Positions 39,395 to 44,518 of a DNA stretch of 64,000 nt are shown in pieces (position 1 is the first letter of the stretch; every line of letters starts with the position of its first letter). The notes below the pieces were generated by a model. It saw only the letters and a list, made by a program, of their open reading frames with translations, did not search any database and was not told the DNA's origin. This DNA comes from Polyangiales bacterium. GTDB lineage: Bacteria; Myxococcota_A; Polyangia; Polyangiales; JADJQN01. The position numbers and the translations under genes are program-made. The stretch is taken from assembly GCA_964202905.1 (NCBI GenBank), contig CAXNJO010000001.1:224001-288000 (forward strand). The letters run 5' to 3'.

Positions 39395-42300
39395 ATGCGC
39401 TCGCCGTCCGCTCCGCGCTCGAACGCACCCACGGTCCCCCGCTCCGCGGCCCTGGCCGCCGCGGCGCTGCTGCTGACCCTCGCCGCGGGGCTCCCCGCGA
39501 GCGCGGCCGCGCAGACCGTCATCAACCCGTACTTCCTGTTCCTGATGGACAGCTCGGGGTCCATGGGGGTCGCGACCACCTGCACGTCGGGCACGCGCAA
39601 CTCCTGCGGCGCGACGTGCACGCGGATGAACGACGCGAAGTGCGCGCTACAGCGCGTCGTGGCCGGGACGGGCGACGCGACGTTCGGGCTCGGCCAGTTC
39701 TCGCAGCTCTGCAAGGTCGGCTGCGCGGACACGCTGAACTCGTCGATCGGTCAGATCACGTGCGACGCGACCTCCGCGTCGGGTGTCATCCGCGTGGGGA
39801 TCGCCGAGGAGAACCAGGCCGCGATCACCTCCTGGGTCGATTACGCGTGCGGCCTCCCGAGCGGCTCGTGCACCTCGACGGCGACGACGCACAACGAGAC
39901 CTACGCGGGCGGCAACACGCCCCTCGGTGGCGTGCTCGAGCGCGCGCGCTGCTATTTCCGCGGCACCTGCGGCGACGCGACGCCCGCCTCGCCGCTCGCC
40001 TCGGACCCGGCCTTCGCGTGCCGACCCGTCAGCGTCATCCTGCTCACCGACGGCGCCGAGACCTGCGGCGGCAACGCCGTCGCCGCGGCGACCGCGCTTC
40101 GCTCGACGGTGGTCGGCGCGCGCACGAAGGACATCCGCACGTACGTGATCGGCTTCGGCGTCACGGCGGGCGACGCGGCGATCGAGGCGATCGCGACCGC
40201 CGGCGGCACCGACGCGCCGGGCGCGAACCGCGGCTTCTACGCGACGAACGAGACGAGCCTCTCGCTCGCCATCTCGCAGATCATCGCGGACAGCGCGCTC
40301 GTCGAGACGTGCAACGGCGTCGACGACAACTGCAACGCGCTCGTCGACGAGGGCTTCACGAAGTATTGCAACACGGCTGCAGGTGTATCACCGCCGCCGA
40401 TCGCCTCGCGCACGCTCTGCACGCGGCCCGCCGAGACCGCGTGCGACGGCTTCGACAACAACTGCGACGGCACCGTCGACGAGGGCTTGCGCAACGCCTG
40501 TGGCAGCTGCGGCGCGACGCCCGTGGAGGTGTGCGACGCGGTCGACAACGACTGCGACGGCGCCATCGACGAGGGCGGCGTCTGCGGCGCGTGCACGCCG
40601 AGCGCGGAGATCTGCGACGGACTCGACAACGACTGCGACGGCAGCGTCGACGAGTCGCTCACGCGGGCGTGCGGCGCGGCCGTCGGCGCCTGCACGGCGG
40701 GCACGCAGACCTGCGTCGCGGGCGCGTGGGGCGCGTGCAGCGGACGCGGGCCGACGGCCGAGACGTGCAACGGCCTCGACGACGACTGCAACGGCGTCGT
40801 CGACGGACTCACGCGTCCGTGCGGCACCGACACGGGCGTGTGCCGCGCGGGCATCGAGCTCTGCACGGCGGGCGCGTTCGGGGGCGGCTGCCTCGGCGCC
40901 ATCGCACCGGGGACGGAGGTCTGCGACGCGCTCGACAACGACTGCGACGGGAGCACCGACGAGTCGGACCCGGACGTCGGCGCGGCGTGCGGCGAGAGCG
41001 AGGGGCCGTGCGAGCCGGGCGCCATCCGCTGCGTCGCCGGCGCGCTGGTCTGCGAGGGCGCTATCGGGCCGACGGAGGAGCGCTGCAACGGCGTCGACGA
41101 CGACTGCGACGGCGCCGTGGACGACGGGCTCGCCGTCGGCTCCGCGTGCGGCTCGGACACGGGCGCGTGCAGCCCCGGCGTGAACGTGTGCGCGGACGGC
41201 GCGCTCCGCTGCGAAGGCGCCGTCGGGCCGCTCGCCGAGACGTGCAACGGCCTCGACGACGACTGCAACGGCCTCGTCGACGACGTCGCGGGGGTCGGCG
41301 CGGCGTGCGGCACCGACCTCGGCGTCTGCATGGCCGGCGTGCTGCAGTGCATCGGCGGGCGCGAGGCCTGCGTCGGCGCGACCGAGCCGGGCACGGAGAC
41401 GTGCGACTGCGAGGACAACGACTGCGACGGCTCCGTGGACGAACCGCCCGCGACCGGCTCGCTCTGCCCCGCAGGCTCGGCGTGCGTCGAGTGCGCGTGC
41501 TCGCTCCCGTGCACCGAGAGCGAGTTCGGCTTCCAGTGCCCGACGGGGCGCACCGCGTTCCTGCGTGGATCCGAGTGTTTCTGCGTTGCGCCGCGCTGCG
41601 AGGACGCGACCTGCGCGACCGAGACCATCGCGCGCGATGGTACGACGCTCTGCGCGCCGGGCGTCGACGGTGTGCCCGTGTGCACGTGCCGCAACAACGC
41701 GTGCAGCTTCCCCTGCGAGGGCGTGACGTGCGCGGGCGGGACGGTGTGCGCGCCCGACACGGGCGTCTGCGTCGAGGACAGCTGCCGCGCGCTCGGCTGC
41801 CCGTCGGGCGCGTACTGCGACGCGATCCGCGGGACGTGCGAAGCCGATCCGTGCGCGACCACCGCGTGCGCAGCGGGCGAGGCGTGCCGCGAGGGCGCGT
41901 GCGAGCCGAGCTGCGCGGACGTGCGCTGCGCGACCGATGAGCGCTGCCGACGCGGCACGTGCGAGGCGGATCCGTGCGCCGGTGTCCGCTGCGACGCGCC
42001 CGGCGAGGTGTGCAGCCCGAGCACCGGCGCGTGCGTCGAGGACGCGTGCGCCGCGATCGCGTGCCCGGTGGGCACCGTGTGCGACCGCGACGCGCGGGCG
42101 TGCGTCGTCGACCCATGCCTGCGCGTGCGCTGCCCGGCGGCGCAGGTCTGCGCGGAGGGCGAGTGCGTCGTCGACGTCGGCCCCGCCGACGCGGGCACCG
42201 ACGCGGGCGCGCGCTTCGACGCGGGCGCGCGCGGCGACGCCGGGCGCAGCGAGCCGACGCGCCTGCTCGCCTCGGGCGGGGGCGGCTGCGTGTGCACGGC

Positions 42301-44518: not shown

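Follow-up and report, generated by a model that had tools for sequence, protein, structure and literature searches.

Bacteria rarely make polyproteins, and the signal of a lipoprotein is generally assumed to sit at the N-terminus, with G, A or S preceding the lipobox Cys; in the lipoprotein pathway Lgt acts first and LspA second. Two membrane proteins are known to arise from one ORF in the cytochrome b-c1 precursor encoded by fbcH of Bradyrhizobium, which carries an internal signal sequence, and in viral envelope polyproteins cut by signal peptidase. Tripartite tags are reportedly processed even where they are not C-terminal, as in an internal LPXTG signal and an ArtA substrate; judged by the titles of those reports, such cases imply no second exported, lipid-anchored product.

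Two described systems with MYXO-CTERM sorting tags come closest to the locus examined here. TraA undergoes Cys-dependent cleavage and is exported through the T2SS (excerpts of PMC11980579 and PMC6372800). It is MrtX that cleaves TraA in this Cys-dependent manner, and the lipidation and cut site of the tag are that paper's model (excerpts of PMC11980579), while traA and traB overlap as two genes in all cases examined (excerpts of PMC6372800). The second system is MXAN_5598 of Myxococcus xanthus, in which an adhesin region is followed by an internal MYXO-CTERM and then by an outer-membrane barrel with OmpA, which is TraB-like (Guo, Haft and Wall, mBio 2025, PMC11980579). Its authors suggested a fusion of two genes, proposed that the N-terminal part is processed, and called the case rare and atypical; we found no discussion of a second signal in MXAN_5598 in the excerpts of their paper (PMC11980579). 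In the main text of the Haft preprint (10.1101/2023.06.07.544157) the terms fusion, fused, internal and lipobox do not occur.

We analyzed a gene at positions 39395 to 44518 (+ strand) of a 64,000-nt stretch of contig CAXNJO010000001.1 from a Polyangiales bacterium; this whole stretch is referred to as the window, and coordinates are positions within it. As far as the excerpted descriptions go, the gene resembles MXAN_5598 in having an internal MYXO-CTERM between an adhesin region and a second protein. MXAN_5598 is one gene whose second part is a barrel with OmpA, whereas the second part of the present gene starts with a lipobox and no barrel or OmpA domain was found in it; and unlike MXAN_5598, described there as rare, fusion is the majority state in the family of the present gene and the two halves co-vary in length. 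The likeness to TraA/TraB and MrtX, on the same excerpts, lies in a surface protein that has a tag and whose gene is followed by, and overlaps, that of a partner. Domain content is different (PA14-like and barrel in TraA/TraB, vWA and FGE fold here), and the genome encodes MrtC where the TraA system has MrtX. The fbcH and viral polyproteins are cut just once, by signal peptidase I or the ER enzyme; in the present protein, by contrast, two cuts by two enzymes are predicted, each leaving a lipid anchor. An internal tag is already in print (MXAN_5598, PMC11980579, as excerpted). We did not find, in the open-licence literature, a tag fused with the signal of a lipoprotein as the prevailing form within a family and in genes whose cargoes are unrelated. 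That literature also yielded no report of Lgt or LspA accepting a lipobox ~1000 residues inside a chain, and nothing on an internal lipobox or on a bacterial polyprotein with signal peptidase.

The gene is a single open frame of 1707 aa with no internal stop in its translation, and GC3 in this frame keeps within 0.89-1.00 across all 300-base bins between 39300 and 44699, in agreement with the uninterrupted ORF read in the initial annotation. The same frame stays open back to GTG 36554, but this upstream stretch overlaps ftsK in a different frame and has low GC3; the longer ORF was therefore ruled out and ATG 39395 is the sensible start. The encoded protein, a candidate two-product precursor, begins with a Sec signal peptide (aa 1-39, 39395..39511; cleavage site read by eye) ending in A-A-A, followed by a vWA domain with MIDAS residues (39512..40303), nine Cys/Asp repeats (40310..41431) and a Cys-rich module that is family-specific, has no Pfam match and served as the family marker (41498..42178). 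After the tag and the lipobox come seven more repeats with three CGxCGxxC modules (42662..43891) and an FGE-fold domain, likely non-catalytic (43904..44515), so that the originally proposed order of parts stands; all features are on the + strand. The Cys/Asp repeats on both sides of the junction match PF11617. In the predicted products the vWA domain would be the tip and the nine repeats the stalk of the first, and the FGE-fold domain the tip and the later repeats and modules the stalk of the second. No sigma-70-like promoter was found for the gene, and its two terminator-like matches fall within the gene itself. A diversity-generating retroelement target, which would call for a template repeat nearly identical to the 3' end and a reverse transcriptase close by, was considered and rejected: the longest matches are paralogues at 68-70%, and neither of the two RT matches is on the contig of this gene.

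The tag (aa 956-1001) contains the elements of a MYXO-CTERM: a signature with the invariant Cys (42260..42295; two Cys, aa 965 and 967, the predicted site of lipidation and of the myxosortase cut), hydrophobic helix 1 as its membrane helix (42335..42376) and an Arg-rich cluster, which passes into a polar, A-rich loop with a run of five A (42377..42433). Its usual accompaniments, an N-terminal signal peptide (by eye) and a myxosortase gene in the genome, are present as well. TIGR03901 matches the tag over all 34 model positions at 15.2 and 14.0 bits, below its cut-off of 20, while a profile of terminal tags from split and stand-alone relatives only scores the junction at 41.8 bits (shuffled junctions, ≤4.7). 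The complete MYXO-CTERM-type signal claimed at first is borne out by the second profile and falls short on the first. The tag is not C-terminal in this protein, in which 708 residues follow; in 51 split loci its homologue ends the chain.

The loop leads into an internal lipoprotein-type signal (42434..42499) made up of ATG 42434, hydrophobic helix 2 and the lipobox L-V-A-G-C, with the Cys as residue 1035 (42497-42499). A basic region, an uncharged hydrophobic helix and a G before the lipobox Cys are all present, and the 14 positions upstream of this Cys hold no charged residue. ATG 42434, Cys 42497, the A-rich linker and a GGAG ending 15 nt before the ATG are where the initial annotation had put them. 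The signal is not at the N-terminus of the translated chain, though the lipoprotein half may conceivably have its own translation start at 42434. Applied strictly, sequence criteria place the protein outside both canonical classes: its MYXO-CTERM tag is internal and scores under the cut-off, and its lipoprotein signal is away from the N-terminus. It is nevertheless likely to work like a member of either class.

The arrangement of sorting tag, Arg loop and export signal, here called the hinge, recurs in the same genome. TIGR03901 has 46 matches at E ≤10, and nine of these are full tags followed by more than 250 open codons. Seven of the nine run into a hydrophobic helix and lipobox: the present gene, its paralogue on contig C4, a DUF4114/BNR gene on C5 with the same repeats and Cys-rich module, and NIDO, amidase, GH15 + alpha-amylase and unknown-domain genes. 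One more has, after its tag, a signal-peptidase-I-like site followed by an OmpA/TraB-like protein, and the ninth, a subtilase gene, has an ambiguous continuation, probably with indels. Five other genes carry the hinge with different cargo, four leading to a lipobox and one to a signal-peptidase-I-like site. The genome encodes the myxosortase MrtC (242.9 bits, cut-off 195; EExxxR and HxxxN motifs), LspA, Lgt homologues and GspD.

For the family survey, an alignment of the Cys-rich module was used as the query; this module lies upstream of the junction, and the survey therefore favours neither the fused nor the split form. At E ≤1e-20, 161 of 401 genomes of the order matched. Loci were taken from the first search (20), from the 150 best listed matches (120; those left out were already taken, unpublished or, in some cases, weak rows) and from named records via the FGE domain (76), and the 170 that contained the module end were assigned to types by profiles derived from the first pass. 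On inspection by eye, three rows were reassigned as fused and one as broken; four without a tag match were dropped, and duplicates were removed. Fused loci make up 89 of the 156 distinct loci and split loci 51; in another 14 no lipobox was matched downstream, one locus is broken and one is truncated. Of these 14, two are split pairs by eye, four show no FGE domain in the stretch covered, and in eight (L045, L169, L178, L183, L087, L093, L099, L100) the FGE gene precedes the tagged vWA-family one, a reversed order in which no fusion at the anchors is possible. Counted over 76 genomes of the survey, a fused copy occurs in 59 and a split copy in 31; 19 contain both forms. The initial annotation had looked to conserved fusion in independent genomes for support and to orthologues encoded throughout as two genes for refutation; the former is what the survey found. 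With a junction-spanning profile, which favours fused forms, 23 of the best 150 cluster representatives were fused; 8 were other internal forms, 78 were terminal and 41 had no tag.

All 89 fused loci have a Cys preceding helix 1, a loop with at least three Arg/Lys in which basic residues outnumber acidic ones, and G or A preceding the lipobox Cys. The terminal-tag profile scores above 15 bits in 88 of them, and the 14 residues preceding the lipobox Cys are free of charge in 79. On a 131-locus tree, with weak support for the backbone and deep branches, at least 8 fusion/fission changes are needed, as against at least 31 with shuffled labels. Judged from these alignments, the fused junction is a family-wide, majority state and not an artefact.

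The split pairs are closely packed: 48 of 51 overlap at ATGA/GTGA, two at TGATG, and one has a 3-nt gap. By this layout they are predicted to be translationally coupled, and the route to fusion through a CGA codon derived from a lost TGA, as first suggested, does not correspond to the family's usual split arrangement, since every split pair overlaps or lies within 3 nt. GGAG is found 6-8 nt upstream of the start in 37 of the 48 overlaps, at 12 nt in one and not at all in ten; it never occurs at 15 nt. A start codon with a Shine-Dalgarno-like site is present in 46/51 split vs 6/89 fused loci. ATG is absent from the stretch between helix 1 and lipobox in 80 of the 89 fused loci, and 50 lack GTG and TTG there as well. 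Given this loss of internal start codons, the second half in most fused loci can come only from the long chain.

We consider it probable (roughly 70%) that the precursor is cut twice at a membrane hairpin, yielding two lipid-anchored proteins that form a paired adhesin. The observations that lead to this reading are the anatomy of the protein, its conservation, the interchange with coupled two-gene forms, the presence of the enzyme genes and the matched stalk lengths; the two-cut scheme itself is what is predicted when the tag pathway and the lipoprotein pathway are placed back to back. Beyond the sequence anatomy, we infer each step as follows. Sec would export the vWA half, with helix 1 as a stop-transfer sequence; the Arg loop would stay in the cytoplasm and double as the basic start of the second signal; and helix 2 would restart export and place the FGE half outside, for a topology of out, in, out. 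The tag Cys would be lipidated and the tag cut by MrtC, Cys 1035 would be lipidated by Lgt and the chain cut there by LspA, and a hairpin of ~65 residues would be discarded after both cuts. The products would arise 1:1, one a vWA-tipped stalk anchored at its C-terminus and the other a stalk with an FGE-fold tip, anchored at its N-terminus. Both would likely reach the surface via the T2SS, by analogy to TraA, and could stand side by side as a two-legged adhesin. Should the cuts take place, Lgt and LspA would be acting on a lipobox far inside a chain and a myxosortase on a tag followed by 700 residues, and many large myxobacterial ORFs would be mis-annotated as single proteins.

The product could instead remain uncut, or be cut once, and sit in the inner membrane by its two helices with both arms periplasmic, the signals being kept as an anchor. 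A hairpin with a basic loop would make a good membrane anchor, and some uncleaved tag protein is still surface-located in M. xanthus (excerpts of PMC11980579). We regard this as unlikely, since an uncut anchor needs no two Cys motifs at exact processing positions and all 89 fused loci have both. Outer-membrane barrel and OmpA proteins need release for function, and the hinge precedes just such a barrel with an OmpA domain in the same genome, where it must be freed to work. An uncut anchor is also hard to square with fused and split forms that have interchanged at least 8 times.

The remaining alternatives concern the present copy, the likely history of which is suggested by its relatives. The closest, P0153 (84.9% identity over 1693 aa), comes from a separate metagenome contig and assembly and is fused; its loop is 13 residues shorter and has no Met. 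A syntenic orthologue from the same genus (ftsK upstream, same downstream gene) is split with a GTGA overlap, and two database proteins at 73-75% identity stop after the tag. In a 19-row tree from a quick search, the present gene groups with P0153 (SH-aLRT 88), with three split forms adjacent and two more outside. The present copy is one of the nine fused loci (of 89) with an ATG in the loop. The simplest reading looks like a recent fusion in which the old tail, the ATG and a displaced GGAG were left here and trimmed in P0153. The suggestion in the initial annotation of two genes with a lost stop is in this sense the likely history of this copy, but it does not hold as an artefact for a family in which 89 of 156 loci are fused.

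Such remnants might still be active, with the lipoprotein half of this copy translated separately from ATG 42434 and the read-through form yielding the first protein after the tag cut. The ATG lies 21 codons before the Cys, close to the median of 22 in split genes, a GGAG is found upstream, the loop is the 6th most A-rich among the 89 fused loci, and the nearest outgroups are split. However, the 15-nt spacing between GGAG and ATG has no counterpart among the 48 split overlaps, and an own start can account neither for P0153 nor for the 50 fused loci devoid of a start codon. We consider a separate start improbable here, and production from one long chain is preferred.

The assembly itself contains candidate frame errors: 308 possible frame switches were found in 5.68 Mb (~54/Mb), vs 5 in 1.15 Mb (4.4/Mb) at other genomes' loci, rates that set a whole genome against family loci and so are not like for like. 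This suggests that the assembly is indel-prone, and findings of broken genes in the same genome therefore need care. A paralogue on contig C1, L191, has frame breaks in the tag spacer (~358700) and near its end (~360900), with an otherwise fused junction. Public contigs from runs X1-X5 include none covering 42406-42444, and an exact-pattern scan of metagenome contigs for the junction gave 0 matches. The least probable of the alternatives, that an assembly error in the A run or the CGA codon joined two genes here, would draw on this indel-prone assembly with its same-contig paralogue carrying two frame breaks, on a one-base loop shift that would end the first gene at TGA 16 nt after ATG 42434, on the absence of a bridging public contig or of another copy in the pattern scan, and on the split state of three relatives at ~73-75% identity; but P0153 is fused in a separate assembly, the layouts that would be hidden (a 19-nt overlap or a 36-nt gap) occur in 0/51 split loci, at ~1 detectable frame switch per 18 kb a hit in the 50-base loop would be unlikely even with homopolymer enrichment, and the family-wide result would be left untouched.

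Evidence that the two predicted products form a pair comes from their tips and stalks. The vWA domain matches Pfam VWA at E 9e-4, and its structural model (pLDDT 88) has vWA fold matches that include BatB and the pilus adhesins PitA and SpaC. Its MIDAS ligands (DSSGS, T, D) conform to DxSxS/T/D and are invariant among 41 sequences. The other tip shares the fold of FGE, and its best PDB sequence match is sulfatase modifying factor 2. Catalytic FGE has a copper-binding Cys pair directly after RGGS; the family consensus is without this pair, and a catalytic formylglycine-generating enzyme was rejected. With an invariant MIDAS on one side and an FGE domain lacking the catalytic Cys pair on the other, both tips look like binding domains.

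Stalks were compared in the 95 loci (of 140 typed) in which both halves are complete. The repeat counts of the two halves correlate with a Spearman coefficient of 0.97 (0.95 in the 29 split loci alone), and the stalk lengths at 0.94 (0.83 in the 29 split loci). Across 93 independent contrasts, r is 0.97 for repeat counts and 0.95 for stalk lengths, and 33 of 35 large contrasts have the same sign; the contrast slope is 0.99, with stalks spanning 150 to 1200 residues. This tight match points to an undescribed paired adhesin, although the match may equally stem from a common reach, with the tips not touching. Complex prediction for the vWA and FGE domains gave a score of 0.46 (best of 3 controls, 0.00), with at least 87% of contacts agreeing between runs and a partner pLDDT of at least 84. 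Of 157 solved pairs 116 pass the mark used for such predictions, as do 2 of 215 mismatched pairs; those that pass with scores ≤0.60 include just 18 solved pairs but both mismatches. The model weakly suggests that the two tips may bind each other. More tentatively, and at somewhat below an even chance, the hinge may be a general polyprotein device in the order, with stalks kept equal so that the vWA and FGE tips meet, and the present copy may be a polyprotein just born from an overlapping gene pair.

Several further features of the genome were recorded. Matches to the Lgt family occur at six places on five contigs (C1, C2, C4, C7, C10), and an extra paralogue among them may be what lipidates the tag Cys; the natural fused and split twins bear on which enzyme does so. 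Short tandem repeats upstream of the MrtC gene (L253, contig C8) translate as a repeated 14-codon unit. The other hinge-bearing genes are varied in cargo. L262 (G000:C6:352983-357989, +) encodes in a single ORF a GH15 glucoamylase-like protein, an internal tag, a lipobox, and a glycogen-binding domain with alpha-amylase, a starch-degrading enzyme pair linked via the hinge. L261 (G000:C5:384203-387415, -) has Ig-like and TSP3-like repeats, an internal tag, a signal-peptidase-I-like site and a TraB-like protein with OmpA, which is the layout of MXAN_5598. In L260 (G000:C3:414205-416361, +) an Amidase_3 protein is fused to a lipoprotein of unknown kind, and in L258 (G000:C2:762035-764668, -) a NIDO protein is fused to a DUF4215 lipoprotein, the end of which looks frameshifted. 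L259 (G000:C6:126355-130617, +) has an N-terminal lipobox, a tag and a second lipobox, with no Pfam match. The subtilase gene, L264 (G000:C10:115628-120757, +), continues from its internal tag through a seemingly out-of-frame stretch into a metalloprotease of the MXAN_6640 family, which itself terminates in another tag-like sequence, and is possibly a pair of tagged proteases in a single ORF.
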